From Candidatus Contendobacter sp. (GTDB lineage Bacteria; Pseudomonadota; Gammaproteobacteria; Competibacterales; Competibacteraceae), in assembly GCA_049290615.1 (NCBI GenBank), contig JBATNZ010000172.1, positions 18,548-50,547 of the forward strand: 32,000 nt of DNA, read 5' to 3'. The notes under the pieces are model-generated. The model had not been told where the DNA came from. It did no database searches and was given only the letters and a program-made list of their open reading frames with translations. Shown here one piece after another: positions 3 through 28,721 of this stretch (position 1 is its first letter; each line of letters begins with the position of its first letter). Position numbers and translations under genes: made by a program.

Positions 3-935
3 TTCTGGGCCGCCGGGATGCGGCCGGAAGATCGCTATGTTCACGCCCTCAATTTCACCCTGTTCGTCGGCGGACCGGACGTGATCGGCGCGCAGAATCT
101 GGGCGCGCTGTGCCTCTGGGCGGGGGCCATTCCTTCCGACCGCTTGCTGTTTATCCTCAAGGAATTCCAGCCGACCGTGATTTGGACCACGCCGTCCTAC
201 GCCTGGGCTCTTGGCGAAACCGCTAAACAGCAGGGTATTGATCCAGCCAGGGATCTGGCCATCAACCGGATCATCGTCGCCGGCGAACCGGGCGGCTCCA
301 TCGACGCGACCCGGCAGGCAATTGAAAGCCTGTGGCAAGCTCAGGTTTTCGACTTTTACGGCATCTCCGACATTTTCGGGGCCTGCGCCGGCATGTGCCG
401 CGAGCGAAACGGTTTGCACCTTGCGGAAGACCACATTCTGGTGGAAATGATCGATCCGAAGACTCTGGAACCGGTGGCGGACGGGGAACGCGGCGAACTG
501 GTGCTGACCACTTTGCGCAAAACCGCCCGCCCCATGATTCGTTTCCGCACCGGCGACATCGGGACGGTGAATCGGGAACCCTGCGCCTGCGGCCGAACCC
601 ACGCGCGGATTGCCATCACCGGCCGACTGGACGACATGTTCATCGTTTCCGGGGTCAACGTGTTTCCCAGCGATGTCGAATATGTGATCAGGAAGGTGGA
701 ACACCTGACGGGCGAATATCGGATCACGGTGTTCACCGAGAATTATACGACCCGCTATCAAGTCGAGGTGGAGAGAAATCAAAACAGTAACGCCAGTCAT
801 TCTGAGTTAGCGGAAGAAGTCTCCCACCAACTCAAAACCCGCTTGGGAGTAAAGCCGAAAGAGGTCTTGGTGCTGGAACCGGGCGAGTTGCCAAGAGCGA
901 CCCATAAAGCCAAGCGGCTGATTGAGTTACGGTAA
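3..935 (+). CDS. PaaK / coenzyme F390 synthetase-family adenylate-forming ligase; 5' end lies outside the window
   Basis: Reading frame is open from the window edge. Translated motifs are typical of the phenylacetate-CoA ligase family: TTPSYAWAL, VAGEPGG, DFYGISD, GLHLAEDH, GELVLTTL, RFRTGDIG, CACGRTH, GRLDDMFIVSGVNVFP. Confidence 0.8.
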   Translation, partial: FWAAGMRPEDRYVHALNFTLFVGGPDVIGAQNLGALCLWAGAIPSDRLLFILKEFQPTVIWTTPSYAWALGETAKQQGIDPARDLAINRIIVAGEPGGSIDATRQAIESLWQAQVFDFYGISDIFGACAGMCRERNGLHLAEDHILVEMIDPKTLEPVADGERGELVLTTLRKTARPMIRFRTGDIGTVNREPCACGRTHARIAITGRLDDMFIVSGVNVFPSDVEYVIRKVEHLTGEYRITVFTENYTTRYQVEVERNQNSNASHSELAEEVSHQLKTRLGVKPKEVLVLEPGELPRATHKAKRLIELR

Positions 936-1004
936 AGCCGACGGAAATACTCTGACTCAAATATGGCTACGAATCCATGGCTTGAAAAGACCGGGAGAAA
1001 GTGA

Positions 1005-2252
1005 ATGTCGACCATCGAAAGTGGCAGGGAATTGACGCTGGACGATGTTGTGGAAAAGTACCCCGAGGTTCCAAGGCTGATCGCCGTTAAGATTGATGTG
1101 CAAAGACGCGGGGTCCATTATACCGACCACGCCTTGTCCAGGCTGGATAAGGAATTACATCAGCTTAGGGGCGCTGCCTTGTTCGGTTCCAGGGACGCAA
1201 AACTCACGCCTTTGCCGGAGTCTTTAATATTGCGGGATGGCACGACGGTTCTGACCGATCCGACTCCTATCGAACAAAATCCTTATCTGGTTGATTTTAT
1301 GGACGGCAAACTGGTTATTACCGATCAGGGAGCCGTTATCGAAGAGGTGGAGTATTGGCCAAAGCCTGATTTCTATGGCAAGAAAACTGCTTCGGGTAAG
1401 CCGATGGAGTTCATCGTTACCGCAAGGCCGCAGCGGTTGCAGGTCATGCCATCCAGCTATTGCCACTTCTGGACCAACGATCATGGTTGCAAGTACTGTG
1501 ACATCGTGAATCATCTGAAACACCAGAAATCAGGGCTTGGCGTGCCGGCAAAACTGCATCCTCAAGAGGTCGGTGAGGTTATACAGGAGGCGCTGAAACA
1601 GCCCGGAAGGTTCTCAAGTATTTGCCTGACCGCGGGTTCGGATACCAGAGGCGCCGAACCCTTTGATGAAGAAGTTGAATACTATGTCGAGCTTCTACAG
1701 GTCATCGGTGAGAACTTTAAAACCAGAAAATTCCCCAGCCAGCTCATTGCAACGGCATTTAATGAGAAGCAGCTTGAAAAGCTCTATCGTGAAACTGGAC
1801 TGATGGGTTATACTGCGGATATTGAAGTATTGAATGAAGATCTATTTAACTGGATATGTCCCGGCAAGGCGGAATGGGTCGGCTATCAGGAGTGGAAAAA
1901 TAGCTTGATAAAAGCCGTGGATATCTTTGGGCGCGGCAATGTGAATACTGGCATTGTCGCCGGGGTCGAATTGGCAAAACCCCACGGCTTTTCCAACGAA
2001 AATGAGGCGTTGCAAGCAACGCTGGAAGAGGCCGAAGACCTTGCGGCCAACGGTGTTTCAACCATCTTCATGGTCTGGATTCCAAGACCACAGGCTTATT
2101 TTCATGACCAGAAAAATGCTTCGCTTGAGTATTATGTCAGCTTGGCGAAAAATCTACATGAATTGAGAAAAAAATATTCCCTGAATATTGATTTCGATGA
2201 TTACCGAAGATGCGGAAACCATCCTGATGGCGATTTGACACGAATTCTGTAA
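1005..2252 (+). CDS. Putative Fe-S / radical-SAM-like enzyme with non-canonical CX8CX2C triad; family not recognised
   Basis: 415-aa ORF with GGGAGA about 6 nt upstream of the ATG. There is a single clustered Cys triad, C153-x8-C162-x2-C165 (YCHFWTNDHGCKYCD, nt 1461-1499), after an N-terminal domain of about 150 aa. The gene is 69 nt downstream of the ligase gene. The functional call is tentative. Confidence 0.55.
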   Translation: MSTIESGRELTLDDVVEKYPEVPRLIAVKIDVQRRGVHYTDHALSRLDKELHQLRGAALFGSRDAKLTPLPESLILRDGTTVLTDPTPIEQNPYLVDFMDGKLVITDQGAVIEEVEYWPKPDFYGKKTASGKPMEFIVTARPQRLQVMPSSYCHFWTNDHGCKYCDIVNHLKHQKSGLGVPAKLHPQEVGEVIQEALKQPGRFSSICLTAGSDTRGAEPFDEEVEYYVELLQVIGENFKTRKFPSQLIATAFNEKQLEKLYRETGLMGYTADIEVLNEDLFNWICPGKAEWVGYQEWKNSLIKAVDIFGRGNVNTGIVAGVELAKPHGFSNENEALQATLEEAEDLAANGVSTIFMVWIPRPQAYFHDQKNASLEYYVSLAKNLHELRKKYSLNIDFDDYRRCGNHPDGDLTRIL

Positions 2253-2275
2253 AAAAACAACAGGATGAATCACAA

Positions 2276-2743
2276 ATGACTTTTGAACTGCATCAGGAAC
2301 TCATAGACCTGATTAATGACTATGGTACTATAAAGGTATTAGCTACGGTGGATGAAAAAGGGCAGCCTCACTCGGTTGTGAAACAGTTCATGCATGTTCT
2401 GGAAAATGGCAATTTCGTTTATCTTGAACTCTTGGAGTCTTCAAGGAGTTACAAGAACTTTACTAGAAGTCTTTGGTACAACCAGAGGGTCTCCATAACG
2501 GTTGTGGGAGGCAAAGGTGAACACTGGCAAATTAAGGGAAAACCTGAAAAAATCATTATCAGCGGACCCGTTTTCGAACGATACTATAAATACGCAAGAA
2601 AGAGGCTTGGAGATGTTGATTTGGCCGCTGTTTGTATTGTTGAACCGGAAGAGCTTGTTAATGAATCATTTTATTACTGCTTTGAACAGCAGGAGAATCA
2701 GCAACCGATATTCAAGCATCTGGATCGTCTTGTAAAAAATTAA
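2276..2743 (+). CDS. Pyridoxamine-5'-phosphate-oxidase-like (FMN/deazaflavin split-barrel) protein
   Basis: 155-aa ORF with an N-terminal pattern typical of the PNPOx-like family (IKVLATVDEKGQPHSV ... FVYLELLESSRSYKNF ... RVSITVVG). It starts 23 nt after the upstream stop codon. Confidence 0.55.
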   Translation: MTFELHQELIDLINDYGTIKVLATVDEKGQPHSVVKQFMHVLENGNFVYLELLESSRSYKNFTRSLWYNQRVSITVVGGKGEHWQIKGKPEKIIISGPVFERYYKYARKRLGDVDLAAVCIVEPEELVNESFYYCFEQQENQQPIFKHLDRLVKN

Positions 2744-2784
2744 ATCCATCACTATCTGCTTAATTTGTCGGATAAATTCGTTTT

Positions 2785-3312
2785 ATGAACGAAAGTGGCA
2801 AGGGTTTTTTATTCGTACCAGCCGGGAAAATGGACATTCCATTGGCATTGAATTTCAGAAGAATCTTGTTCGATGAAATGGGAGTGCCTGACAATTCATT
2901 AATCGATAACTGTTACGATATTCTTTTCAAGTTGTACCAGGAAGAATTTGAGGAGGGAAGGATACAGCACTTCATTGCTTACAACGGAGAACATGAGCCT
3001 GTCGCCATCGCTGGCGCATTACTAAAAACTGATTTTCCCTACTATCTTTTCAAGCCTGGCTACTATGGCTGGATTATCGATGTATACACCGTTCCAAAAT
3101 ACAGAGGCAGGAAGCTTGCCAGCCAGCTTCTGGAATTAACCCAGCAATGGCTGGTCGCCAAGGGAGTGCAGGAAGCAAAACTGATTGCGGCGGGAAGCGC
3201 CGCAAGGCGGCTTTATGAGCGGTTGGGATACCGGGCGACCTGGGAGATGAGTGTTAATTTGTCTGGCAACAAAACATATAACGAGTTTATCGATTTGAAA
3301 AAAGAACCATGA
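2785..3312 (+). CDS. GNAT-family N-acetyltransferase
   Basis: 175-aa ORF with an acetyl-CoA-binding region (DVYTVPKYRGRKLASQLLELTQQWL) and the C-terminal RLYERLGY motif characteristic of GNAT proteins. Confidence 0.7.
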   Translation: MNESGKGFLFVPAGKMDIPLALNFRRILFDEMGVPDNSLIDNCYDILFKLYQEEFEEGRIQHFIAYNGEHEPVAIAGALLKTDFPYYLFKPGYYGWIIDVYTVPKYRGRKLASQLLELTQQWLVAKGVQEAKLIAAGSAARRLYERLGYRATWEMSVNLSGNKTYNEFIDLKKEP

Positions 3313-3461
3313 TCCACCTTTTTCAGGGTTTCATCGAATCCATAAACGGAGAGAGTAACGATGGAAGTCATGGTGTGGTAGTGATGCACTGTGGTCAGGA
3401 CTATATCAGATGGAAGATTTATCACGGCTACATCTGACTTTGCTGATTTGAAAGGTTTGGA

Positions 3462-4985
3462 ATGCGCTACGGATTCGTCATTGATCAAAACCGCTGCATC
3501 GGCTGTCATGCCTGCACTGTTGCTTGTAAAGCAGAACATAATATCGCCGTCGGTGTGAATCGAACATGGGTCAAGTATATTGAAAAAGGCCGTTATCCAA
3601 ACACGCGCCGTCACTTTGCCGTCCTGCGCTGCAATCACTGCGACAACGCTCCTTGCATCGAAATCTGTCCAACAGTAGCTCTATTTCGGAGACCGGACGG
3701 TATCGTCGACTTCGACCATGAGCGCTGCATCGGCTGCAAATCGTGCATGCAGGCTTGCCCCTACGACGCGCTTTACATTGATCCGGATAGAAACACCGCG
3801 GCAAAGTGCAATTTCGACGCTTCGCGCGTGGAGATGGGCTACAAGCCCGCCTGCGAGGTCGTCTGCCCGACGCAAGCGATACTGTCCGGCGACCTCGACG
3901 CTCCGGCGAGCGAGATCAGCAAGCGGATTGCAATGGAGAAAGTCAGCGTTCGAAAGCCGGAAAAGGGCACCAGGCCAAAGCTTTTTTACGTCGGTGTGGA
4001 CGGAGATCTGCTCCAGCCCGCGATGATGGAGCCTCAATCAGCGCACTTTTGGGCGGAAAAGCAGCCGGGTGAAGATCGTTATGCCCTGAATCAAGGGAAC
4101 GCGGACCGGCCAATTCCAGGAAGTGGACGAGAGGTCTACGATGTACCGCACGCGACGCCATGGAAAAAAAAGATCGCGATCTATCTTTGGGCCAAGTCCA
4201 TCTCCGCAGGAGTGTTGTTGATTTCTGCCTTACTGCTCCACATCGGCTTCGAGCAGGACATGCGATTACTGTGCGTCGTGAACCCTGTCGTAGCGCTCGT
4301 ATTTTTAGGGATCACCTTATTTTTGCTCGTCTTCGATCTCAAGAAACCGGGGCGGTTTTATTTTCTTCTCACTCGCCCTAACTGGAGATCTTGGCTAGTT
4401 CGAGGAGGCTATCTTCTTTTGATTTATGGAATGTTGGCTGCGGCGTGGCTCGGACAAGGGCTGACCGAAGGATCGGTCAAACCCTTTTTGTTTTTGCCGA
4501 CCGCAATCTTCGCGATTGCATCGACTTGCTACTCGGCTTTTCTCTTCGCTCAGGCGAAAGGCCATGATTTCTGGCGAAGCCCATTGTTGTTCTGGCAGCT
4601 CCTGATCCAGGCCGTCACTGCGGGGGCAGCGATGTTGATCCTGCTGAGTACGCTGTTTGACCTCAGCGTGCCGTTGTTTTTCTGGCTTCGTGATCTGCTC
4701 TTGACCTCTCTGTGTCTGAGCCGCGCGTTGCTATTGAGCGAACTTTTCGTGGACCACGGTGGGGAGGAAATCAAACGTGCGACGGCACTGCTCACCAAAG
4801 GGGCTTTGCGAGGTCAATTTTGGACTGTCGTCATTGGGCTTGGCTGCATTGCGCCATTGATCCTGATTCTTTGGCCCGAGAGCCCTTGGTTGCTCTATAG
4901 CGTCGCCAGCGTTTTGGTTCTACTCGGCCTATGGATGTATGAAGATCTCTGGATCAAGGCAGGCCAATCCGTGCCGCTAAGCTAA
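3462..4985 (+). CDS. Fusion protein: four-cluster ferredoxin (PsrB/NrfC/SoeB-like) domain + NrfD/PsrC-type integral membrane quinone-interacting domain
   Basis: Residues 1-140 carry CIGCHACTVAC, CNHCDNAPCIEICP, CIGCKSCMQACP and CNFD..(11)..CEVVCP. There is no signal or Tat sequence, since the first Cys is residue 12. Residues ~230-507 are strongly hydrophobic (about 8 helices) and include the NrfD-like signature DLKKPGRFYFLLTRPNWRSWLVRGG. Confidence 0.85.
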   Translation: MRYGFVIDQNRCIGCHACTVACKAEHNIAVGVNRTWVKYIEKGRYPNTRRHFAVLRCNHCDNAPCIEICPTVALFRRPDGIVDFDHERCIGCKSCMQACPYDALYIDPDRNTAAKCNFDASRVEMGYKPACEVVCPTQAILSGDLDAPASEISKRIAMEKVSVRKPEKGTRPKLFYVGVDGDLLQPAMMEPQSAHFWAEKQPGEDRYALNQGNADRPIPGSGREVYDVPHATPWKKKIAIYLWAKSISAGVLLISALLLHIGFEQDMRLLCVVNPVVALVFLGITLFLLVFDLKKPGRFYFLLTRPNWRSWLVRGGYLLLIYGMLAAAWLGQGLTEGSVKPFLFLPTAIFAIASTCYSAFLFAQAKGHDFWRSPLLFWQLLIQAVTAGAAMLILLSTLFDLSVPLFFWLRDLLLTSLCLSRALLLSELFVDHGGEEIKRATALLTKGALRGQFWTVVIGLGCIAPLILILWPESPWLLYSVASVLVLLGLWMYEDLWIKAGQSVPLS

Positions 4986-4997
4986 GAAAGGAAAGAT

Positions 4998-7823
4998 ATG
5001 AGTGAAAGCCGGTTGCCTCATCATCCAGTTGCCGCAGAGCTTGATCCCCTCAGCAGCCTGGTCAGTTATCCACCTACGGAAAAGTGGGACGACTGGGTGG
5101 AGTACGATACGGCCCATTGGCCCAAGAAGGTTGAAAAGCGTTATCAGATCATTCCCACGATTTGTTTTAATTGCGAAGCGGCGTGTGGACTGATCAGTTT
5201 TGTGGATAAGGAAACATTGCGCATCCGTCGCTTCGAAGGCAATCCGGAACATCCGGGCAGTCGCGGTCGCAATTGCGCCAAGGGACCCGCGACACTGAAT
5301 CAAGTCACCGACCCCGAACGGATCCGTTACCCGCTGAAGCGTACTGGAAAAAGGGGAGAAGGCCACTGGGAGCGGGTCAGTTGGGACGAAGTTCTCGACG
5401 ACATTGCGGCATGCGTGCGACGGGCCCTTCAAGATGATCGGCGCAACGAGATCATGTATCACGTCGGGCGTCCGGGTCACGAGCTTCTCTATCATCAGAG
5501 AATTCTCCATGCCTGGGGGATTGACGGCCACAATAGCCACACCAATGTCTGCTCAGCCAGCGCCCGTGCAGGTTATGCGTTCTGGTCGGGCAGCGATCGA
5601 CCGTCGCCGGATCATGCCAACGCCCGCTTCATCTTGTTGCTGAGTTCGCATCTGGAAAGCGGCCACTATTTCAACCCGCATGCTCAACGCATCGTCGAGG
5701 CTAAAAACCAGGGGACGAAAATTTGCGTCATCGATACGCGCCTTTCCAATACCGCGTCCAAGGCCGATTACTGGCTGTCGTCATGGCCGGGAAGCGAAGC
5801 AGCGATCTTACTGGCCATGAGTAATATTCTCTTGCAAGAGGATCTCTTCGACCGTCAATTTGTCCGGAGGTGGGTCAACTGGGAAGAATATCTGCGCGAA
5901 GAGCACTCCGATGAGCCGCAAATCTTCCAATCGTTCATTTCGTTATTGAAACGAAACTACGCGCAGTACACGCCGGAATTTGCCGCCAAGGAAGCCGGCG
6001 TCGATCCGCGCGTCTTGGTCGAGGTCGCGCATGAAATAGCCAAGGCGGGGACGGCGTTTTCCAGCCATGTTTGGCGCAACGCCGCCGCGGGAAATCTCGG
6101 CGGCTGGCAAGTCGCGCGGGCGCTACAGTTTTTAGCCGTGCTTGTCGGTGCGGTCGGAACTCCCGGCGGCACCGCGCCCAACGCGGCAAATAAATTCATC
6201 CCTGCTCCACCGCTGATGCCGCCACCGTCCAAGGTGTGGAACGAGATGCTGTTGCCGAAGGAATATCCCCTGGCATTCTTCGAGATGAGTTTTCTGTTGC
6301 CGCACTTTATCAAAGAAGGACGAGGCAAGCTCGCCATGTATTTCACCCGGACTTACAACCCGGTCTGGACTAATCCAGACGGCATGAGCTGGATCGAAAT
6401 GCTCACGGACGAGAGCAAGGTCGAGCGTCACGCTTGCCTCACGCCCACGTGGAGCGAGACCGCCTGGTTTGCCGATTATGTTTTGCCGATGGGACACGCC
6501 TCCGAGCGGCATGACTTGATGAGCCAGGAGACTCATGCGGCGCGCTGGATCGGTTTTCGCCAGCCCGTACTCAGAGTTGCGTTGGAGAAACAGGGGAGGG
6601 AATTTAACTTCACCTACGAGGCGCATCGTGAAGCTGGCATCGGCGAAGTATGGGAAGAAGATGAATTCTGGATTGAATTGTCGTGGCGCGTCGATCCTGA
6701 CGGCTCGCTGGGCATCCGAAAATACTTCGAATCGCCCTATGAACCTGGCAAAAAGATGACGGTGGAGGATTATTATCGCTGGATTTTCGAAAATAGCGTA
6801 CCGGGTCTTCCCGCAACGGCGATGAAAAAAGGATTAGCGCCATTAGAGTATATGCGCAAATACGGCGCCTTTCTGATCGAGGACAATGTTTATCATGTCC
6901 ACGAAACTGGGCTCAAAGCGGATGATTTGAACGACGCAACCACAGATCCAGTGACCCATCTCATTGCGAAAAACGGCGCTACTCTAGGGGTCGAGGTCGA
7001 TGGCCAAGCTTGCACCGGCTTTCCCACGCCATCGCGGAAGCTCGAGTTTTACTCGAAGACGCTGAAGGACTGGAAATGGCCGGAATACGCGATTCCCGGT
7101 TACATTAAAAGTCACGTTCACCCGGAGCAAATCGATTTCGATGCCGGCGAGATGCTGCTGCTTCCGACATTCCGTCTACCGACGTTAATCCACACCCGTT
7201 CCGGCAACGCAAAATGGTTGTACGAAATCTCCCATAGAAATCCGCTTTGGATTAATACCAAGGATGCGCAACATCTTGGCGTGAAAACAGGAGACCTTCT
7301 AAAAGTCCAGACGGAGATCGGTTACTTCGTCGATAAAGTGTGGGTTACGGAAGGGATCAAGCCCGGCGTCGTAGCCTGCTCGCACCATCTCGGCCGGTGG
7401 CGGCTTCAAGAAGATTTTGGCGGCGAACGGTGGTCCACCGCTCTCGTTGATATAAAACAAGTCGGCGAGGGGAGATGGATGATGCGTCAGGTCCACGGCA
7501 TTAAACCTTTCAAGAGCGATGATTCCGATTCCGAGAGGATTTTCTGGGAAGATCCCGGCGTGCATCAGAACCTCACTTTCCCAGTGCAACCCGATTACAT
7601 CAGCGGCCAGCACTGCTGGCATCAGAAGGTGCGAGCGACCAAGCCGGGCCCCGACGATAAGTACGGCGATATCTTTGTGGACACCAACAAATCCCACGAA
7701 GTCTACAAGCGCTGGCTCACTATGACGCGTCCGGCGCCGGGACCGGATAATCTTCGCCGGCCACTGTGGCTGCCGCGATCATATAAGCCTGCTCCCGAGG
7801 CGTATCATTTGCAGGAGAAATAG
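4998..7823 (+). CDS. Molybdopterin (Mo/W-bisPGD, DMSO-reductase superfamily) oxidoreductase catalytic subunit, no export signal
   Basis: 941-aa ORF with AAGGAAAG upstream as a ribosome-binding site. It has an N-terminal FeS0 motif CFNCEAACGL...GRNCAKG, a probable Mo-ligand region HNSHTNVCSASARAG, and C-terminal molybdopterin-binding-domain motifs (VKTGDLLKV, GVVACSHHLGRW, HQNLTFPVQPDYISGQ). No RR twin-arginine motif occurs in the first ~55 residues. It starts 12 nt after the FeS-NrfD gene. Confidence 0.9.
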   Translation: MSESRLPHHPVAAELDPLSSLVSYPPTEKWDDWVEYDTAHWPKKVEKRYQIIPTICFNCEAACGLISFVDKETLRIRRFEGNPEHPGSRGRNCAKGPATLNQVTDPERIRYPLKRTGKRGEGHWERVSWDEVLDDIAACVRRALQDDRRNEIMYHVGRPGHELLYHQRILHAWGIDGHNSHTNVCSASARAGYAFWSGSDRPSPDHANARFILLLSSHLESGHYFNPHAQRIVEAKNQGTKICVIDTRLSNTASKADYWLSSWPGSEAAILLAMSNILLQEDLFDRQFVRRWVNWEEYLREEHSDEPQIFQSFISLLKRNYAQYTPEFAAKEAGVDPRVLVEVAHEIAKAGTAFSSHVWRNAAAGNLGGWQVARALQFLAVLVGAVGTPGGTAPNAANKFIPAPPLMPPPSKVWNEMLLPKEYPLAFFEMSFLLPHFIKEGRGKLAMYFTRTYNPVWTNPDGMSWIEMLTDESKVERHACLTPTWSETAWFADYVLPMGHASERHDLMSQETHAARWIGFRQPVLRVALEKQGREFNFTYEAHREAGIGEVWEEDEFWIELSWRVDPDGSLGIRKYFESPYEPGKKMTVEDYYRWIFENSVPGLPATAMKKGLAPLEYMRKYGAFLIEDNVYHVHETGLKADDLNDATTDPVTHLIAKNGATLGVEVDGQACTGFPTPSRKLEFYSKTLKDWKWPEYAIPGYIKSHVHPEQIDFDAGEMLLLPTFRLPTLIHTRSGNAKWLYEISHRNPLWINTKDAQHLGVKTGDLLKVQTEIGYFVDKVWVTEGIKPGVVACSHHLGRWRLQEDFGGERWSTALVDIKQVGEGRWMMRQVHGIKPFKSDDSDSERIFWEDPGVHQNLTFPVQPDYISGQHCWHQKVRATKPGPDDKYGDIFVDTNKSHEVYKRWLTMTRPAPGPDNLRRPLWLPRSYKPAPEAYHLQEK

Positions 7824-7964: not shown

Positions 7965-8981
7965 ATGAAGCAAGCCCTGAAAATCGGGTTGCGGACCCTG
8001 ATCGCCGCGCCGTTGCTGGCTGGGTTAGCCCTGAGCGCCCAGGCCGCCGAGAAAGTCACCATCGCCTACCAGACGACGGTTGAACCGTCCAAGGTGGCCC
8101 AAGCCGATGGCGCTTATGAGAAGGCCACCGGCTGGAGCATCGACTGGCGCAAGTTCGACACCGGCGCGGAGGTGATCGCCGCCGTGGCGTCCGGCGACGT
8201 ACAAATCGGTTATGTCGGCTCCAGCCCGCTGGCCGCCGCCGCCTCGCACCAGTTGCCGATTGAAACCTTCTTCATCGCGGTCCAGATCGGGGCATCGGAA
8301 GCGCTGGTGGTGCGCGACAAAGCCGGCATCGTCAAACCGCAAGATCTGGTGGGCAAAAAAATCGCCGTGCCTTTCGTCTCCACCACCCACTACAGCCTGC
8401 TGGCGGCGCTCAAGCACTGGGGGATCAATCCCAAGGACGTGCAAATCCTGAATCTGCGCCCGCCGGAAATCTCGGCGGCCTGGGAACGTGGCGACATCGA
8501 CGCCGCCTACGTGTGGGACCCGGCGCTCGGCAAACTCAAGGCGTCGGGCAAGGTACTGACCGATTCGGCGCAAGTGGCGCAATGGGGCGCGCCGACCTTC
8601 GACGCCTGGATCGTGCGCCGCGATTTCGCCGAAAAACATCCGAAATTTGTCCAGGAGTTCGCGCGGGTGACGGCGGAAGCTTATGCCGCGTACCGCGCCA
8701 ACCCCAACGCCTGGGGGGTCAAGTCGCCGCAGGCCGCCAAGATCGCCAAGCTGACCGGAGCCAATCTGGACGAAATTCCGGAGCTACTGGCCGGCAGCAC
8801 CTTCCCGCTGGCCAAGGAACAAGTCGGCGCGGCATTGTTGGGCGGCGGCACCGTCAAGGCGATTGCCGATACCGCCGCTTTCCTCAAGGAGCAAGGCAAG
8901 GTGGAAAGCGTGCTCGGCGATTACAGCGGCTACGTCAATCCCCGGTTCGTCAAGGCCGCCCAGACCCAGGCCAAACTGTAA
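7965..8981 (+). CDS. tauA: Taurine ABC transporter periplasmic binding protein
   Basis: Signal peptide (ALSAQA/AEK) and long colinear similarity to E. coli TauA as I remember it (VAQAD, DWRKFD.GA, SGDVQIG..GSSPLA.AAS, AVPF.STTHYSLLAALKHWGI, GDID.AYVW.PA, GKVLTDS.QV.QWGAPT.D.W.VR.DFAEKHP). Confidence 0.95.
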   Translation: MKQALKIGLRTLIAAPLLAGLALSAQAAEKVTIAYQTTVEPSKVAQADGAYEKATGWSIDWRKFDTGAEVIAAVASGDVQIGYVGSSPLAAAASHQLPIETFFIAVQIGASEALVVRDKAGIVKPQDLVGKKIAVPFVSTTHYSLLAALKHWGINPKDVQILNLRPPEISAAWERGDIDAAYVWDPALGKLKASGKVLTDSAQVAQWGAPTFDAWIVRRDFAEKHPKFVQEFARVTAEAYAAYRANPNAWGVKSPQAAKIAKLTGANLDEIPELLAGSTFPLAKEQVGAALLGGGTVKAIADTAAFLKEQGKVESVLGDYSGYVNPRFVKAAQTQAKL

Positions 8982-9005: not shown

Positions 9006-9803
9006 ATGGCGGAATTGCGCGTCGAGAGAGCCGCCGCCGTCTATTCGGGGCGAAATGGGCCGGTCACGGTGTTCGAGAATCTGTCGCTGACCGTGGGCGC
9101 CGGGCGATTCATCGTGGCTCTGGGCGCGTCCGGTTGCGGCAAGACCACGCTGTTGAACCTGATGGCCGGGTTTCTGCGCCCCAACGCCGGGCGGATCGCC
9201 CTGAACGAGCGCGAGGTGCAGGGGCCGGGGGCGGAGCGCGGCGTGGTGTTCCAGCATGACGCCCTGTTCCCTTGGCTCAACGTGCTGGATAACGTGGCGT
9301 TCAGCCTGCGGTTGCGCGGAACTCCGGCGCGAGAACGCCAGGAACGCGCCCGCGCCGCGCTGGCGCTGGTCGGCCTGGCCGGCTTCGACCGCCATCACGT
9401 CTGGGAATTGTCGGGCGGGATGCGGCAACGAGTTGGGTTGGCGCGGGCGTTGACCGCCGATCCGCAAGTGCTGTTGCTGGACGAACCCCTCGGCGCGCTC
9501 GACGCCCTGACCCGCGAACAGATGCAGGAACTGTTGTTGACCGTGTGGGGGCAGACCGGCAAGACGCTGTTCATGATCACTCACGGCATTGAAGAGGCGC
9601 TGTTGCTGGCGACCGATTTAATCATTTTGTCGCCGCGCCCGGCCCGCATCGCCGAAACGCTGACGCTGGATTTTGGCCGCCGCTATCTGGCCGGAGAAGC
9701 AGCGCGGCAGCTCAAGGCCGACCCCGCCTTCGTGGCCCTGCGGGAGCGGGTCACCCGCACCTTGTTCGCCTACAACACCCAGGAAGAATTCGCCGATGTC
9801 TGA
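9006..9803 (+). CDS. tauB: Taurine ABC transporter ATP-binding protein
   Basis: Walker [29 protein letters not shown], signature [15 protein letters not shown] and Walker [14 protein letters not shown]. The sequence is colinear with E. coli TauB, including the C-terminal [13 protein letters not shown]. Confidence 0.93.
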
Positions 9804-10686
9804 GTTCGACGCCGAAGTGTTAGTTTTCCCGGCGGTGGAACTGCCTGGAGAAGTCGATGCGCTGACCCTCCCGGCGGCAGCGATTCCGCAGCACCCTCGA
9901 CCCCTGCCGTGGCGGCGCTGGCTGGCGCAGCCGCGCCTGCTGTCGCTGGCGACCGTGGTGGCGTTGTTGGCCCTCTGGTGGCTGGTCACCGCCCTGCAAC
10001 TCGTGCCGCCGCTGTTTCTGCCTTCCCCCCAGGCCGTGCTCGGCAAGCTGTATCGAGTCGCGACCGACGGCTACATGGATGCCACGCTTTGGCAACATCT
10101 GAGCGCGAGCCTGGCGCGCGTCGCCGTCGCCTTGCTGGCCGCCAGCCTGACCGCAATCCCCCTGGGCATCCTGCTGGGCCGCAGTCGCCGCGCCCGCGCC
10201 ATTGGCGATCCGATCATCGAGTTCTACCGCCCGTTACCGCCGTTGGCCTACCTGCCGCTGATCGTCATCTGGTTCGGCATCGGCGAGCTATCGAAAATCT
10301 TGCTGATTTATCTGGCGATTTTTGCCCCAGTCGTCATTTCCACCATGGCGGGCGTCAACGCCGTCGCCCCCGACCGCCTGCGGGCGGCGCAAGCCCTGGG
10401 CGCCAACCCGCGCCAATTGCTCTGGTATGTGGTGCTGCCCAGCGCGCTGCCCGACATCCTGACCGGTATTCGCATTGGCTTGGGCACCGGTTGGTCCACC
10501 CTGGTGGCCGCCGAACTCATCGCCGCCACTCAGGGACTGGGGTTCATGGTGCAGTCGGCGGCCAACTTCCTGGTCACCGACGTGGTGGTGCTGGGCATTC
10601 TGGTGATCGGCGCGGTGGCGGTGGGACTGGAATTGCTGATTCGCGCCCTGCAACGGCGGCTGACCCCTTGGCAGGGCCAGGTTTGA
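9796..10686 (+). CDS. tauC: Taurine ABC transporter permease
   Basis: ATG at 9796 overlaps the tauB stop (9801-9803). The polypeptide is hydrophobic with a binding-protein-dependent permease core ([33 protein letters not shown]). The longer ORF-track start at 9673 lies inside tauB and is rejected. Confidence 0.9.
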
Positions 10687-13539: not shown

Positions 13540-14325
13540 ATGACGCTATCAATCCGCCATCTCCCATGGCGCGGGTTGCTGCCCTGGGCCTTGCCGATCT
13601 TCATTCTGGTGGCGTGGCAGTTGTCGGCGCAATGGGGCTGGCTATCGACCCGCATCCTGCCGGAGCCGTTGGCGGTGGCCAAGGCAGCGGTCGCCCTGAC
13701 CTTATCCGGCGAACTATTCACTCACGTGCGCATCAGCGCCGGGCGCGCGCTGGCTGGGTTCGCCCTCGGCGGCGGACTGGGTTTGTTGTTCGGGTTGCTG
13801 AATGGTTCGTTCAGAAACGCGGAAACGCTGTTCGATTCGACCATTCAGATGATCCGCAACATCCCGCCGCTGGCGCTGATTCCCCTGGTGATCCTGTGGT
13901 TCGGGATCGAAGAGAGCGCCAAGCTGTTCCTGGTTTCGCTCGGCGTCTTTTTCCCCATCTACATCAACACCTTTCACGGCATCCGCACGGTCGATCCGGG
14001 CTTGATCGAAATGGGCCGGGCCTATGGGCTGTCGGGCTGGCGCCTGTACCGCGAGGTGATTCTGCCGGGCGCGTTGCCGTCGATTCTGGTGGGGGTGCGG
14101 TTTTCGCTCGGCTTCATGTGGGTGATTTTAATCGTCGCGGAAACGATCTCGGCCCAGGCGGGCATCGGCTACATGACGATGAACGCCCGGGAATTTTTGC
14201 AAACCGACGTGGTGTTGCTCGGCATTTTGCTTTACGCCCTGCTCGGCAAGCTGGCGGACGGGGTCGCTAAGGGATCGGAGCGCTACTGGCTGCGCTGGCA
14301 CCCCAGCTATCAGCCGATCCGATGA
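13540..14325 (+). CDS. ssuC: Aliphatic sulfonate ABC transporter permease
   Basis: GAAGGAG lies 5 nt upstream of the ATG at 13540; the alternative ATG at 13516 abuts the ssuD stop. Permease core: [33 protein letters not shown]. Confidence 0.9.
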
Positions 14326-14377
14326 CCGGGAACGCCCGTTGCTCGAATCGGCATCCACTTCGAGGAAGAACGCCGCC

Positions 14378-15226
14378 ATGTACTTGAATCCGAACGAATG
14401 GGCCGCAACGCCGCCGGGCGCCGCCACGGAAAGGCCGCCGGGTGTCCGGTTGCAGGTGGAGGGGCTGACGAAAGGCTACGCCGGGCGTGGCGTGCTCGCC
14501 GGATTCGACCTTGCGGTGGATCGCGGAGAATTTACGGCCATCGTCGGCCGCAGTGGCTGCGGCAAGAGCACCCTGTTGCGGCTGGTCGCGGGTTTGGAGC
14601 GGCCGGAACACGGCACCGTTTGCTACGACGGTGTCCCGCAAAACGGTATCCCCCCGACCATGCGGCTCATGTTTCAGGACGCACGCCTGCTGCCGTGGCG
14701 GCGCGTGCTCGCCAACGTCGCGCTCGGCTTGCCCAAGACGGAGCATCCGCACGCACGGGCCGTCCTGGAGCAGGTGGGATTGGGCGAACGCGCCGCCGAT
14801 TGGCCCGCCGTCCTGTCCGGCGGGCAACGCCAGCGGGTGGCGCTGGCGCGCGCCCTGGTGCATGACCCCGGTTTGTTGCTGCTGGACGAACCGCTCGGCG
14901 CACTCGATGCGCTGACCCGCATCGAAATGCAGCAATTGCTCGAAAACCTGTGGCGGCAGCGCGGGTTTACCGCGCTGCTGGTCACTCACGACGTCGCCGA
15001 GGCGATTGCACTGGCCGACCGGGTAATTTTGATCGAACACGGACAAATTTCGCTGGATTTGCGCATCGATTTACCCCGACCCCGCGCTCGCGGCAGCGCC
15101 GTGTTTGCCGCCCTGGAAGAGCGGGTGTTGAACCGCGTGCTGCAACAACCCGACGTCGAGCCGGTCGGTCCCGTTACCGAACCGTCCGTATTGCAGGGTT
15201 TCAATGGGTTTCGCTGGGCCGTTTGA
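14378..15226 (+). CDS. ssuB: Aliphatic sulfonate ABC transporter ATP-binding protein
   Basis: Walker [18 protein letters not shown], signature [15 protein letters not shown] and Walker [15 protein letters not shown] chose the ATG at 14378 because GAGGAAG lies upstream; 14339 is also possible. Confidence 0.9.
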
Positions 15227-15274
15227 ACGGCGCTGTCCGCCACTTTCTTCTCGTCCTCGATCAAGGAGAACACC

Positions 15275-15490
15275 ATGAGCATTCAAGCCATCAACGCCCG
15301 CAATCAATTTCGCGGCACCATCAAGGCCATCATCACCGGCCCCGTGGTTTCGGAGGTCGATGTCGAAACCCCGGCCGGCATCGTGACCTCGGTCATCACC
15401 ACCCGTTCAGTGGAAGATCTGGGGCTTGTCGTCGGTACCGAGGTGATCGCCTTCGTGAAGGCGACCGAAGTCGCCATCGCCAAACCATAA
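15275..15490 (+). CDS. ssuF: Small molybdopterin-binding (Mop/TOBE, molbindin-like) protein in the ssuF position
   Basis: 71-aa ORF with an AAGGAGA ribosome-binding site. The sequence (SARNQFRGTIKAI..GPV.SEV.VE...G..VTSVIT..S...L.L..G..V.A.VKA) fits the TOBE/Mop fold. Pseudomonas ssuEADCBF operons end with such a gene. Confidence 0.8.
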   Translation: MSIQAINARNQFRGTIKAIITGPVVSEVDVETPAGIVTSVITTRSVEDLGLVVGTEVIAFVKATEVAIAKP

Positions 15491-15592
15491 GCCACGACAA
15501 CACTACGTGATGGCGCGAGCGTTCTCGTCTGCTGTTTCCCGATACTTTCCAAATTGCGTCGCCCGCGGTCATTGGGGCGGCGTTATCCAGCA

Positions 15593-15627
15593 CACACGCT
15601 AAACCGCGTGTGCTTAACGGATTTTTT
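15593..15627 (+). terminator. Possible terminator hairpin after ssuF
   Basis: 7-bp stem CACACGC / GCGTGTG (15593-15599 / 15606-15612) with a 6-nt loop. A T6 run at 15622-15627 is separated from the stem by about 9 nt, so this is not a canonical intrinsic terminator. Confidence 0.3.
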
Positions 15628-15777
15628 CATAAAAAAATTAAAATTTATTCTTTAATAACCATCAATCGTGTCAATTATAGTAGATGTCAGGGAGCGGCCA
15701 TCGGCCCCACACTTCACCGTGGCGTACTGATGGCAGGCTGCTGATTTTATTCATGACTTTTGAGAAGGTGAGTGATC

Positions 15778-16662
15778 ATGAGTTTGGGAAGAAAAACAGG
15801 TTTGCTTGCAGTCATCCTGGCGGCGCTCGTTCTGGTCAACGGCGGCGCATTTGCGGAAAACCAAAAACTGGTTTTCGGGGTTGCGCCGGGGCCTTACGGC
15901 GACTTGATTCGTTTCGCCATCAAGCCGTTTCTGGAGAAAAAAGGCTACACCATTGAAATCAAGGAATTCAGCGATTATGTTCAGCCCAATCTGGCGCTGA
16001 ATAACGGCGATCTGGACGCCAATCTGTTTCAGCATGTCCGTTATTTAAGAAAGTTCTCCGCCGACAAGGGTCTTAGTTTGACCGAGGTCATCACGATTCC
16101 GACTGCGGGGCTAGGCATCTATTCCCGAAAGATCGAGGCTAAAAATGCCGATGAGTTGAAAACCAAGCTGAAAAAGGGCGACACCATCACGCTGGCGAAT
16201 GATCCGACTAACCTGGCCAGAGCGTTGGCGTTGTTGCAAAAAAATGGACTGATCACGATCAAGGGGACGATTGATCAAACCAAATCTTCGGAAAAGGATA
16301 TCGACCAAAACCTCTATGGTCTGGTGATTCAGCCCATTGAAGCGGCGCAATTGCCACGCTCGCTAGACAGCGTAACGCTCTCGGTGGTGAATGGCAATTA
16401 CGCCATTGCCGCCGGCATTCCGCTGGCGTCGGCGATCATCAAGGAAGAACTGGTGGAGGATTTGAAGAATCTGGTTGCGGTCAGGACGGCGGATATTGAT
16501 AAGCCCTTCGTCAAGGACATCAAGGATGTCATTCAGTCGGAGGACTTCAAGAATGTTGTTGAAGACCCGAAGCATGTATTTAAGGATTTTCAGCGGCCCG
16601 CCTGGTATATCGAGAAGTGGACAAAACCTAACCAAAAGGTGTCGTCGGCAGGAAAGAACTGA
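15778..16662 (+). CDS. metQ: Methionine (NlpA/MetQ-family) ABC transporter substrate-binding protein
   Basis: GAGAAGG lies 9 nt upstream of the ATG at 15778. MetQ-family motifs: FGVAPGPYGDL, EIKEFSDYVQPNLALNNGDLDANLFQH, ANDPTNLARALALL, VVNGNYA. The signal peptide ends AFA/ENQ and has no lipobox Cys. Confidence 0.9.
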   Translation: MSLGRKTGLLAVILAALVLVNGGAFAENQKLVFGVAPGPYGDLIRFAIKPFLEKKGYTIEIKEFSDYVQPNLALNNGDLDANLFQHVRYLRKFSADKGLSLTEVITIPTAGLGIYSRKIEAKNADELKTKLKKGDTITLANDPTNLARALALLQKNGLITIKGTIDQTKSSEKDIDQNLYGLVIQPIEAAQLPRSLDSVTLSVVNGNYAIAAGIPLASAIIKEELVEDLKNLVAVRTADIDKPFVKDIKDVIQSEDFKNVVEDPKHVFKDFQRPAWYIEKWTKPNQKVSSAGKN

Positions 16663-16734
16663 CTGCGGCTGCCCTACCACCGTTGCCGCTGCCCTGATTC
16701 AGCCTCGGCAACGGTAGCTTCATCTTCATGCTGA

Positions 16735-16842
16735 ATATTCGCCGGATTACTGACCGTCATCCTCATCGGTCTAGCGGTGGAGAATCTGATTTTCCGGGTC
16801 GTGGAAGCGCGCACTGTCTGCCGCTGGGAAATGCACGGCTGA
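16735..16842 (+). pseudogene. Relic of the C-terminus of a TauC/SsuC-type (NitT/TauT family) ABC permease
   Basis: Translation in the frame ending at TGA 16840-16842 gives IFAGLLTVILIGLAVENLIFRVVEARTVCRWEMHG. This matches the last TM helix plus the ..E.R...RW tail of the TauC/SsuC proteins in this window. An in-frame TGA at 16732-16734 precedes it and no start codon is present. Confidence 0.5.
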
Positions 16843-16873
16843 TCTACGCAAGATCATTCGCTGAAATCGCTCT

Positions 16874-18034
16874 ATGGAAACAACTGCAATGTCTTTTGAA
16901 ACGCCCTGCCGCCCAGCCATTCCCGGGTCGCGCCAGACCATCCATGCTGAAAGCGAATTCCTGAAACCGTCCCCGAAAGAACATCTGCATTTGAGCGGTC
17001 CCATCGCAAAACTTTTTAAGAATAACACGATCAGCTTGCAAAATATTTCGGTCAATTTTTCCCACCAAGGCAAGACGCTAGCGGCAGTAAAAAATGTCTC
17101 GCTGGACATTCCAAAAGGCGAGGTTTACGGCATCGTTGGCACCAGCGGCGCAGGGAAAAGCACGGTGTTGAGAACGATCAACTTGTTGCAGAAACCCACA
17201 GCGGGGCTGGTCTTGATCGAGGCTACCGACATCACCAACTTACAGGGAGAAGATTTACGGAATATCCGCTTGAAAATCGGCATGGTTTTTCAGCACTTCA
17301 ATCTGATCAACAACAAGACCGTTGCGGAAAACGTGGCGTTTGTCATGAAGGTCGCCGGCAAATCCCATCAGGAAATCGCCAGGCGAGTGCCAGAACTATT
17401 AGAGTTGGTTGGACTGAGCGATAAAGAAACCGTCTATCCATCCCGGCTGTCGGGCGGGCAAAAACAGCGAGTAGGGATTGCGCGAGCGATTGCCAACGAG
17501 CCGCAAATACTGCTATGCGACGAACCGACTTCGGCGCTGGATTTGGAAACGACCGGCGCCATTCTGGATTTGTTGAAAACCATCAATCAGCGATTACACA
17601 TTACCACGGTGCTGATTTCCCACGAAATGGCGGTGATTAAAAAAATCTGCGACCAGGTGGCGGTCATGAATAATGGCGAAGTGGTGGAAACTGGCGATGT
17701 TTATGAGATTTTTGCTGCGCCCAAACATGCCGTGACTGCACAACTGGTGGCGCACACCCAGGATTTGGAACTACCGGAGCGGCTGTTGCAAAATGCCCGT
17801 GGCGTTTTGATTAAGGTCCTGTATCGCGGTGGAAAAGCCGAAGAGCCAGTGTTGTCGGATACCATCAAGCGATTTGACATTGATTTGAACGTCCTGCATG
17901 GAAAGATCGAATACATTAATGAGCGGCCGCTGGGCGTTCTGATTTTGGAAGCGGTCGGCAGTGAAACAGAAATAGCGCGGGCCTTGAGCTATATCCGGGG
18001 CAGAGTGGTACAGGCGGAGATCGTGCATGGATAA
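16874..18034 (+). CDS. metN: Methionine ABC transporter ATP-binding protein
   Basis: Walker A GTSGAGKSTVLRTINLL, signature LSGGQKQRVGIARAIA, Walker B ILLCDEPTSALD and a C-terminal NIL/ACT-like domain (LIKVLYRG...LHGKIEYI). The start is uncertain. The conserved core begins near ISLQNISVNF (about nt 17030), so the first ~45 codons may not be translated. Confidence 0.88.
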   Translation: METTAMSFETPCRPAIPGSRQTIHAESEFLKPSPKEHLHLSGPIAKLFKNNTISLQNISVNFSHQGKTLAAVKNVSLDIPKGEVYGIVGTSGAGKSTVLRTINLLQKPTAGLVLIEATDITNLQGEDLRNIRLKIGMVFQHFNLINNKTVAENVAFVMKVAGKSHQEIARRVPELLELVGLSDKETVYPSRLSGGQKQRVGIARAIANEPQILLCDEPTSALDLETTGAILDLLKTINQRLHITTVLISHEMAVIKKICDQVAVMNNGEVVETGDVYEIFAAPKHAVTAQLVAHTQDLELPERLLQNARGVLIKVLYRGGKAEEPVLSDTIKRFDIDLNVLHGKIEYINERPLGVLILEAVGSETEIARALSYIRGRVVQAEIVHG

Positions 18035-18692: not shown

Positions 18693-18900
18693 ATCCAGAC
18701 TATCAGGCGGAAGTCGGGAACGGATGTGATAACCTGAGGAGCTTTGTGTCTGTTGATTCCGGAATATCTCGATAAGCCGTCATAAGATGGCTTCAAATAA
18801 TTCCCGCATTATCCAAGGCGATACCGATATGGTTTTATGACATATCCGGTAATATAGCGCTCCTAATCTGATTTGTGGAATCGCCGTTTCAAACCACCCC

Positions 18901-18936
18901 GGCGCTACGCGCCACCCCTCCTTATCCAAGGAGGGG
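18901..18936. repeat. Two adjacent perfect hairpins (REP-like element) in an AT-rich spacer
   Basis: GGCGC-TAC-GCGCC (18901-18913) is followed by CCCCTCCTT-ATCC-AAGGAGGGG (18915-18936), and both are preceded by ACCCC. The 10-mer TTATCCAAGG also occurs at 18809-18818. Confidence 0.6.
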
Positions 18937-19147
18937 AAAATATATAACTCAAATAGGATTGCTATAGCACGCATCAGTTATTCATTTGTATATCAAAAAT
19001 TCTTCTTTTGAGATCGGTTTCGTTCCGAATACTCTATCACTAACCCTATTTATATCAGCGGAAATCGAGAACGTGCAACCCTCTCTCGGAACTCATCGAG
19101 AAAGCCGGACGGGGCGTGCATGCCGAAGAGTATGAGGAGATGGAAAG

Positions 19148-28565: not shown

Positions 28566-28611
28566 CAGAGGTTCTCATTCGGCGGCGCGTCGCAACATGC
28601 CGGTTTGGTCC

Positions 28612-28684: not shown

Positions 28685-28721
28685 GCCAGCCGGTGTTGGC
28701 GACGAGTTTGTTAGGCACGGG

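Follow-up and report, generated by a model that had tools for sequence, protein, structure and literature searches.

Our analysis of a stretch of DNA from Candidatus Contendobacter sp. (the window, meaning the whole 32,000 nucleotides) suggests that two adjacent genes near its start encode a two-component, O2-independent enzyme that releases sulfur, most likely as sulfite, from imported organosulfonates. We put the probability of this reading at roughly one half. The two genes are open reading frame 2 (ORF2), which encodes a variant radical S-adenosylmethionine (SAM) enzyme, and ORF3, which encodes a small split-barrel protein. With ORF4, which follows them and encodes a GNAT N-acetyltransferase, they make up what we call the triad; ORF1, a PaaK-like ligase gene, lies upstream. 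That the module plays some part in sulfur scavenging, sulfonate desulfonation included, is highly probable. More tentative is the claim that ORF2 and ORF3 represent a previously unrecognized class of desulfonating enzyme, which would cleave the carbon-sulfur (C-S) bond of taurine-type or aliphatic sulfonates without oxygen. The ORF2 family is catalogued (NCBIfam NF045502) but functionally uncharacterized, and its architecture and partner would be new.

Gene neighborhoods of ORF2 relatives

In a scan of one genome per species, we identified relatives of ORF2 in 254 species. We compared 85 non-redundant loci (numbered with the prefix L below), including contigs obtained by exact-protein look-ups, and of these 59 are well flanked, with at least 3 kb on both sides of the radical SAM gene. 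A gene for an ORF3-like protein lies within 200 nucleotides (nt) of the radical SAM gene in 71 of the 85 loci and within 3 kb in 76, among them 55 of the 59 well-flanked loci. Of the 59 well-flanked loci, 56 encode at least one component of an Ssu/Tau-type ATP-binding cassette (ABC) transporter no more than 6 kb away (ATPase in 53, permease in 51, binding protein in 42). The linked binding proteins either score above the cutoff of the SsuA_fam model or have the taurine model as their best match. These counts point to a conserved unit consisting of ORF2, ORF3 and an Ssu/Tau-type ABC transporter.

Profile searches agree with the gene-by-gene assignments made in a preliminary description of this DNA (PaaK-family ligase, CX8CX2C radical-SAM-like protein, split-barrel protein and GNAT), and its statement that the set maps onto no characterized cluster was borne out. 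The description had also treated ORF1 to ORF4 as one cassette whose members should travel together across genomes. This is not what we found: an ORF3-like gene accompanies the radical SAM gene in the 76 loci given above, a GNAT gene in 14 of the 85 loci and a PaaK-like ligase gene in 3.

Sequence and predicted structure of ORF2

ORF2 matches the NF045502 variant_rSAM model with 194.3 bits (cutoff 125), and its score on Pfam PF04055 is 19.5, under the gathering score of 29.5. An AlphaFold 2 model built on 20 homologues (predicted local distance difference test, pLDDT, 83.7; predicted template modeling score, pTM, 0.88) shows a beta-rich N-terminal domain of ~145 amino acids (aa) followed by a radical-SAM barrel. 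In a Foldseek search of the PDB with this model, all 12 top matches were radical SAM enzymes, each with a probability of 1.00, and the matches include MgmA, BioB, LipA/LIAS, RlmN, Cfr, HemN and viperin. The TMq of these matches is only ~0.4 because of the extra N-terminal domain in ORF2. With a profile match above cutoff and a radical SAM fold, the earlier label "radical-SAM-like" stands, and we assign ORF2, as a prediction from profile and model, to the radical SAM superfamily as a genuine member.

ORF2 contains six cysteines (C153, C162, C165, C207, C285 and C403). The first three form the motif C153-x8-C162-x2-C165 (nt 1461-1499, + strand) that had been picked out from the sequence at the outset, and because there are only six cysteines, ORF2 has no alternative CX3CX2C motif. 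All six are invariant in an alignment of 20 diverse sequences from several phyla. Among 120 orthologues, 118 retain the CX8CX2C spacing, as do ~82 of 91 full-length distant representatives, with CX9CX2C in a few; because it is conserved in orthologues and in most distant relatives, the motif is not a chance feature. A structural check had been proposed for it, and the AlphaFold 2 model places the three cysteines on the loop that connects barrel strand beta-1 (residues 144-147) to helix 168-178. They presumably form the site of the SAM-binding [4Fe-4S] cluster, and the three extra invariant cysteines (C207, C285 and C403) could hold an auxiliary cluster.

Other conserved features of ORF2 are consistent with this assignment. 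We read 'CLTAGS' (residues 207-212, strand 205-209) as the position of the GGE motif and 'TGIVAGVE' (residues 315-322, strand 313-319) as that of the GxIxGxxE motif, both of which bind SAM in this superfamily. In the alignment, G211, S212, G320 and E322 are invariant, as is the C-terminal DDYRRCGNHPD motif in all 20 sequences, and so are many arginines and lysines, a pattern compatible with an anionic substrate. ORF2 is 65-88% identical to homologues in Firmicutes, Deltaproteobacteria, Chlorobi and other groups. A PDB sequence search using the ORF2 profile returned no relative with a solved structure. RadicalSAM.org lists CX8CX2C megaclusters (PMC9477430), and the mixture of CX8CX2C and CX9CX2C in the ORF2 family fits the motifs of Megacluster 4-6 in that resource, a fit of motifs rather than a confirmed placement.

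The variant radical SAM gene occurs twice in several genomes, as in L004 (6570-7832 and 10001-11254) and the locus pairs L019/L027, L042/L059, L048/L061, L051/L053 and L076/L085. In some cases each copy has a separate Ssu-type binding protein, which suggests that the paralogues are specialized for different substrates. L004 also has nitrogenase-like (Mar/Isr-type), NifB-like and B12-dependent radical SAM genes within the same 20 kb. On a Streptomyces plasmid, a 28%-identical ORF2 paralogue adjoins a GNAT gene, and the small proteins encoded beside it are not detectably ORF3-like.

ORF3 as partner of the radical SAM enzyme

ORF3 matches Pfam PNPOx_N (PF01243) with 32.6 bits (cutoff 28.1). Using an AlphaFold 2 model (pLDDT 80.9), we obtained 53 Foldseek matches in the PDB at E<=1e-3, every one a split-barrel protein. 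The top structural match is HupZ (28% identity, E 6e-9), and others include a Desulfovibrio flavin mononucleotide (FMN)-binding protein and F420/FMN split-barrel proteins. The C-terminal tail of ORF3, F-x-H-L-D-x-L, is invariant. ORF3 is probably flavin-binding.

In a profile search of 1.84 billion representative proteins, we identified natural radical SAM paralogues with an ORF3-like C-terminal extension. The extension is detected by hmmsearch at E 1e-7 to 3e-5 (among 150 listed proteins) and by hhalign with probabilities of 95.7% and 90.7%. Four examples (P0371, P0373, P0379 and P0382) are 567-621 aa long and retain both the CX8CX2C motif and the terminal HLD motif. Fusion of the two proteins speaks for ORF2 and ORF3 working as a single enzyme. 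Together with the conserved pairing of the separate genes, it leads us to regard ORF3 as a predicted obligate partner of the radical SAM enzyme.

ORF4 marks a taurine-type subclade

ORF4 matches the Pfam families Acetyltransf_1 (PF00583; 47.3 bits, cutoff 20.7) and PF13508 (39). None of the NCBIfam GNAT subfamily models scores it above cutoff, and its relatives in the PDB are uncharacterized GNATs only. The 14 loci with a GNAT gene are confined to those whose radical SAM protein is at least 74% identical to ORF2. Presence of the GNAT tracks the type of transporter: a taurine-type binding protein is found in 10 of the 11 GNAT loci with a detectable binding protein. Of the 40 loci that lack a GNAT, one has a taurine-type binding protein and 39 an Ssu-type one. 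By this distribution, the GNAT appears to be an accessory gene that marks a taurine-type subclade, and we propose that ORF4 would N-acetylate an amino-sulfonate substrate.

The link to taurine transport is closest in the Competibacteraceae. In three loci of this family (L009, L010 and L088), a high-GC host tauA lies directly 3' of the GNAT gene, at a distance of about 110-150 nt, and in L009 and L088 the genes run triad-tauA-tauC-tauD. In these two loci, the same importer thus has the triad on one side and an O2-dependent taurine dioxygenase on the other. No TauD homologue is encoded anywhere in the 32-kb window. TauA of the window scores 495 bits on TIGR01729 (cutoff 304), and tauABC is a probable supplier of substrate to the triad.

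Sulfur genes in related loci and in the window

Across the compared loci, recurrent neighbors of the radical SAM gene are genes for sulfite reductase, ThiS/ThiF/JAB proteins, TusA, Cys_Met_Meta_PP enzymes, homoserine O-acyltransferase, cysteine synthase, MetK, Rrf2 regulators and MetNIQ, along with nitrogenase-like (Mar/Isr-type) genes and B12-dependent radical SAM genes. SAM riboswitches (S-box) occur in three clostridial or Bacillota loci.

The window has the same character. It carries ssuA, ssuD (692 bits), ssuC and ssuB, and an ORF 5' of these genes resembles an ssuE-type FMN reductase in our reading of its translation. Also present are metQNI, an ORF resembling O-acetylhomoserine sulfhydrylase (from its translation and its likeness to MetY of L010), enzymes of the cystathionine gamma-synthase/lyase family and of cystathionine beta-synthase-like type (best matches just under cutoffs), and a sulfate-binding protein with a cysT-like permease ORF, the permease recognized from its translation only. 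We interpret the whole window, from its predicted gene content, as a sulfur-scavenging island. The preliminary description had suggested that a small molecule or cofactor is made or modified here, a proposal at odds with this catabolic and assimilatory context.

Some parts of the island have separate histories. The metQ-metN-metI genes (15772-18692) have a GC content of 0.50-0.57 versus about 0.65 in the surrounding host genes, and metQNI may have been gained horizontally as a second unit for sulfur uptake. At 28584-29535 (- strand), the window contains a thioredoxin-like gene 62% identical to that of L088, flanked by short fragments of a CoA-transferase beta C-terminus and an SsuA-like binding protein N-terminus. 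In L009 and L088, a module of binding protein, ABC transporter, thioredoxin and CoA-transferase precedes the triad, and the gene and fragments in the window appear to be what is left of it; this implies rearrangement and decay within the sulfur island. In L010, from a Competibacteraceae metagenome-assembled genome (MAG), an SrpI-like type 2A encapsulin shell gene lies beside a gene of class-V aminotransferase/cysteine desulfurase type (2564-5600, - strand), a few kb upstream of the triad; it is another sulfur-starvation-associated system of the island.

Horizontal acquisition of the triad

The low GC content originally attributed to all four genes holds for ORF2, ORF3 and ORF4, whose GC at third codon positions (GC3) is 0.54, 0.41 and 0.52, respectively; ORF1 deviates less (0.72). 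GC3 is 0.81 in the neighboring host tauA, and 0.62-0.64 in the two molybdenum (Mo) enzyme genes that follow ORF4, which are less deviant than ORF2-4. Beyond the Competibacteraceae, the closest relatives of ORF2 are found in Clostridia (Acetivibrio and Pseudobacteroides), at 83% identity. In one clostridial locus (L007, 7356-17097), genes for the radical SAM enzyme, ORF3, GNAT, permease, taurine-type binding protein and ATPase lie between two large serine recombinase genes, and L008 and L011 were noted alongside it for the same recombinase-bracketed six-gene unit. This bracketing suggests that the module moves as a cassette. The GC3 values, the clostridial relatives and the recombinase-flanked unit together indicate horizontal transfer of the triad out of low-GC anaerobes, with insertion in front of a resident host tauABC. 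The hosts of the module are anaerobes, or sludge organisms that alternate between anaerobic and aerobic conditions (Contendobacter, Accumulibacter and Propionivibrio).

Window layout and the genes around the triad

The four ORFs lie on one strand with gaps of 69, 23 and 41 nt, exactly as first described (Table 1). A Candidatus Contendobacter MAG record carries identical ORF2 and ORF3 proteins. ORF1 is cut by the window edge, and the genes upstream of it in this organism are those we infer from locus L010. In the intergenic gaps of the + strand from ORF1 to the Mo enzyme gene, we found no intrinsic terminator-like site. This is weak evidence, compatible with co-transcription, and because the gaps have no such site, the ligase and Mo genes may well share a transcript with the triad in the window.

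Table 1 Genes at the start of the window, in order along the DNA
Feature	Position (nt)	Strand	Remark
ORF1, PaaK-family acyl-CoA ligase, C-terminal 310 aa	3..935 (start 18, frame open from 3)	+	gene cut by window edge
ORF2, variant radical SAM enzyme, 415 aa	1005..2252	+	
ORF3, split-barrel partner protein, 155 aa	2276..2743	+	
ORF4, GNAT N-acetyltransferase, 175 aa	2785..3312	+	
Fused 4Fe-4S/NrfD membrane subunit gene	3462-4985	+	domain matches
Mo-bisPGD catalytic subunit gene, without Tat signal	4998-7823	+	domain matches
tauA, host-type	7965-8981	+	TIGR01729
tauB	9006-9803	+	
tauC	about 9796-10686	+	

ORF1 matches the AMP-binding and AMP-binding_C_2 families, and PDB phenylacetate-CoA ligases match it at E 3e-74. 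Against the PaaK equivalog models, the truncated 310-aa query scores 217.8 on TIGR02155 (cutoff 646) and 242.9 on NF041878 (cutoff 700). At the family level, these matches clearly identify ORF1 as a PaaK-family adenylate-forming ligase. We found no paa genes around the PaaK-like ligase. Its homologue in L010 is 466 aa long and positioned after metY-metX. In the myxococcal locus L022, a 69%-identical copy lies on the strand opposite to the radical SAM gene, in an operon (13588-21212, - strand) with genes for RACo, a DUF1847 protein, a class I/II aminotransferase and a 2-oxoacid:ferredoxin oxidoreductase. Such a gene set would suit the reductive carboxylation of an acyl-CoA to a 2-oxo acid that is then transaminated, perhaps to recover an amino acid from the corresponding acid. 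Because the ligase occurs in only three loci, has the metY-metX context in L010 and belongs to an opposite-strand operon in L022, we rejected it as a part of the module. Two relatives encode a CoA-forming enzyme directly upstream of the radical SAM gene: in L010 it is a ligase, in L009 a CoA-transferase. We did not adopt the CoA-transferase pair of L009 and L088 as a replacement for the ligase, since it belongs to the module of binding protein, ABC transporter and thioredoxin.

The Mo enzyme pair sits between the triad and tauA in the window (3462-7823). It is absent from L009 and L010, and in L088-L091 it lies between the CoA-transferase genes and the radical SAM gene, upstream of the triad. 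L009 and L088 share their gene order from the thioredoxin-like gene to tauD and encode three upstream flanking proteins that are 96%, 92% and 94% identical; they differ there by a 4.4-kb Mo block, with the site occupied in L088 (5543-9905) and without the pair in L009 (9703-9747). The absence of the pair from L009 and L010, its change of position and the clean 4.4-kb difference mark it as a movable two-gene unit. Homologues at 83-95% identity are abundant in unrelated contexts, such as L092, where the neighboring thiamin pyrophosphate (TPP) enzyme is not Xsc and the context is not sulfonate-related. For the catalytic subunit, relatives in this identity range occur on very many soil and sediment contigs (Udaeobacter, Binatia and Deltaproteobacteria).

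The closest solved relatives of the Mo enzyme are ArrA and PsrA, and the N-terminus of neither protein of the pair contains a twin-arginine motif. One guess is that the pair is a SoeABC-like sulfite dehydrogenase. A Mo enzyme is found near the radical SAM gene in 2 of the 85 loci, in two different positions; on these counts and the 4.4-kb presence/absence, we rejected it as a conserved functional partner. The earlier suggestion that the cassette might supply or process the substrate of the Mo enzyme falls with the same counts and with the absence of the pair from the closest relatives. We regard the PaaK-like ligase and the Mo enzyme, from their distribution, as probable lineage-specific neighbors in a sulfur island and not as components of the module. 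Both may nonetheless serve sulfur metabolism.

A proposed mechanism for O2-independent desulfonation

The gene identities, the fold, the conserved pairing and fusion of ORF2 with ORF3, the linkage to transporter and sulfur genes and the horizontal origin are results of the analysis; from this gene context we infer a substrate, a sulfite product, an order of steps and a role for ORF3. In the taurine-type subclade, a taurine-type amino-sulfonate would be imported by TauABC, and elsewhere the linked Tau- or Ssu-type transporter would import a sulfonate. The ORF4 GNAT would acetylate the substrate amino group in the taurine-type subclade. ORF2, the proposed catalytic C-S cleaving subunit, would reductively cleave SAM, and the resulting 5'-deoxyadenosyl radical would initiate C-S cleavage. 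One possible route resembles that of isethionate sulfite-lyase: a hydrogen would be abstracted beside the carbon that bears the sulfonate, and beta-scission would follow. Another is attack by a PhnJ-like protein thiyl radical formed on one of the extra invariant cysteines. ORF3 would serve as a tightly bound subunit for electron transfer or redox chemistry, or for substrate handling. The sulfite would then be reduced and incorporated into cysteine and methionine, for which genes fill the rest of the window. In this scheme, the triad would be an anaerobic counterpart of TauD and SsuD.

Several points weigh against this proposal. The function of the module is read entirely from gene context, and the co-occurrence counts come from loci that are not phylogenetically independent. 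In Firmicutes, the taurine-type binding proteins score 262-267 bits, under the TIGR01729 cutoff of 304, and SsuA_fam is a broad subfamily, so the true substrates could be other anionic or organosulfur compounds. We did not find an S-box or T-box directly upstream of the radical SAM gene, and the riboswitches nearby control adjacent genes. Two structural neighbors of ORF2, BioB and LipA, insert sulfur and do not remove it. The closest solved relative of ORF3, HupZ, binds heme, and flavin in ORF3 is therefore not certain. Finally, we found no paper describing the ORF2 family in the open-access literature and bioRxiv full text; because the family may have been characterized elsewhere, "undescribed" is a provisional term.

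Alternative explanations

A sulfur-related module could act on something other than sulfonates, such as thioethers, sulfoxides or sulfones, sulfamates, sulfate esters or S-alkyl-cysteine derivatives, or could transfer sulfur in the manner of BioB or LipA when sulfur is limiting. BioB and lipoyl synthase rank with the best structural neighbors of ORF2, the auxiliary cluster that C207, C285 and C403 could hold would suit such chemistry, and many loci have Mar/Isr-like nitrogenase homologues and B12-dependent radical SAM genes for other organosulfur compounds. In Bacillus subtilis sulfur-salvage operons, moreover, the GNATs SnaA and YtmI act on S-alkylcysteines. The transporters of the module, however, are of the Ssu/Tau (NitT/TauT) type and not of the amino-acid type, their binding proteins exceed the SsuA_fam cutoff or match the taurine model best, and in Competibacteraceae the triad stands directly before a bona fide tauABC(D). 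We consider this alternative unlikely, at about half the weight that we give to desulfonation.

The module might instead have no sulfur role, serving in the salvage of a nitrogen compound or a vitamin (thiamin pyrimidine, ThiY/NMT1-type) or in cofactor maturation, with the sulfur context a coincidence. The linked binding proteins belong to the NMT1/THI5-like superfamily, which includes ThiY and NrtA, and the nearest named radical SAM family, MSMEG_0568, comes from the nitrogen-starvation cluster Nit1C, which has a GNAT, a flavoenzyme and an NrtA-type transporter. ORF2 nevertheless scores only 59.8 bits on the model of that family, TIGR04043 (cutoff 303.7), and no other Nit1C genes are present. 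Scanning 12 related loci and the window, we found SAM riboswitches only and no TPP riboswitch, and the recurrent neighbors are genes of cysteine and methionine metabolism and of sulfite reduction. Thiamin or nitrogen salvage is thus unsupported, with no TPP riboswitch in the scanned loci and Nit1C models far under cutoff, and a module without a sulfur role is improbable.

The weakest alternative is a four-gene biosynthetic or tailoring cassette that would combine carboxylate activation, radical chemistry, flavin redox and N-acetylation, possibly for the Mo enzyme: the six genes are close together on one strand without a terminator-like site in the window, and a CoA-forming enzyme is encoded directly upstream of the radical SAM gene in L010 and L009, but the ligase and the Mo enzyme are rare neighbors (3 and 2 of 85 loci), the Mo pair is a clean 4.4-kb difference found on opposite sides of the triad in the window and L088, the ligase follows metY-metX in L010 and sits in an unrelated opposite-strand operon in L022, the CoA-transferase is part of a separate module with remnants 25 kb away in the window, and biosynthetic scaffold genes are absent, all of which makes this reading very improbable.

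Comparison with known systems

Carbon-phosphorus (C-P) lyase comprises import by PhnCDE, a GNAT (PhnO) for aminoalkylphosphonates and a radical SAM enzyme with an atypical cysteine motif (PhnJ). The module resembles it in being a starvation-scavenging system, in having an ABC importer with a binding protein of a related superfamily, in having a GNAT only for amino-substituted substrates, and in relying on a radical SAM enzyme with non-canonical cysteines that would break a carbon-heteroatom bond. Unlike C-P lyase, the module has no sequence relation to PhnJ or PhnO, lacks PhnGHIKLM-type accessory proteins and has a split-barrel protein as its partner, and its target would be a C-S and not a C-P bond. 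The parallel is thus only one of analogy, not of membership.

The closest named radical SAM family to ORF2 is Nit1C MSMEG_0568 (TIGR04043; E 2e-16, 24% identity). Like the module, Nit1C combines a variant radical SAM enzyme, a GNAT and a flavoenzyme beside a transporter of the NitT/TauT family; a Loktanella plasmid locus (L094, 5329-10994) served as reference, with an MSMEG_0568 radical SAM gene, an MSMEG_0567 GNAT, an MSMEG_0569 flavoenzyme and an NrtA-type transporter. In contrast, the window has no Nit6803 nitrilase, AIR-synthase-like protein, MSMEG_0569 flavoenzyme or MSMEG_0570/0572 proteins, the module's flavoprotein is an unrelated 155-aa split-barrel, and its context is sulfur, not nitrogen. 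BioB and LipA are top structural matches of the ORF2 barrel and would share a possible second cluster, which ORF2 could hold on its three additional cysteines. They differ from ORF2 in sequence (13-16% identity), and ORF2 has the CX8CX2C motif, the extra 145-aa N-terminal domain, a predicted obligate split-barrel partner and another genomic context.

The O2-independent systems for desulfonation of taurine or isethionate named in a 2024 paper are only thiamin diphosphate-dependent Xsc, the glycyl radical enzyme IslAB and nitrogenase-like IsrBHDK (PMC11423573); another glycyl radical enzyme, HpsGH, cleaves the C3 sulfonate 2,3-dihydroxypropane-1-sulfonate (DHPS; PMC13436972). The module would share with these four the role of releasing sulfite from C2/C3 sulfonates without O2. 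Like them, it lies beside Ssu/Tau transporters, and Isr-like genes co-occur with it in some loci (PMC11423573). It differs in having no glycyl radical enzyme, thiamin diphosphate (ThDP) enzyme or NifHDK homologue, and the radical SAM enzyme would itself be the catalyst. IsrB is a BciD-like radical SAM protein (PMC11423573), of a family different from that of ORF2, and a 2026 review of nitrogenase-like systems contains nothing on the ORF2 family. The module also occupies the position of TauD and SsuD/SsuE, adjoining tauABC or ssuABC in sulfate-starvation islands, and resembles SsuD/SsuE in having two components, a catalytic subunit and a small flavin protein. The folds and chemistry are unrelated to those of TauD and SsuD, which need O2, whereas radical SAM enzymes are O2-sensitive.

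Significance

Sulfonates, including taurine, isethionate and breakdown products of sulfoquinovose, form a large pool of organic sulfur, and the classical enzymes for scavenging them, TauD and SsuD, require O2. Denger, Cook, Chien and colleagues reportedly found in the 1990s that Clostridium spp. anaerobically assimilate the sulfur of alkyl- and arylsulfonates, with an enzyme that was not identified. If our proposal is correct, the enzyme behind these clostridial reports would be identified, and ORF2 and ORF3 would represent a fourth O2-independent system after the three named for taurine and isethionate. It would be widespread, compact, horizontally mobile and based on a radical SAM enzyme, with no fewer than 254 species, anaerobes or facultative anaerobes, carrying it. 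A catalogued, uncharacterized radical SAM cluster with an unusual Fe-S motif would gain a function, in a compact and testable system of three genes plus a transporter. The system would be a sulfur counterpart of C-P lyase and an anaerobic counterpart of TauD and SsuDE, and would supply a missing part of anaerobic sulfur cycling in guts, sediments and wastewater sludge. In Contendobacter, a facultative sludge bacterium, a module derived from anaerobes stands before the organism's own taurine importer.

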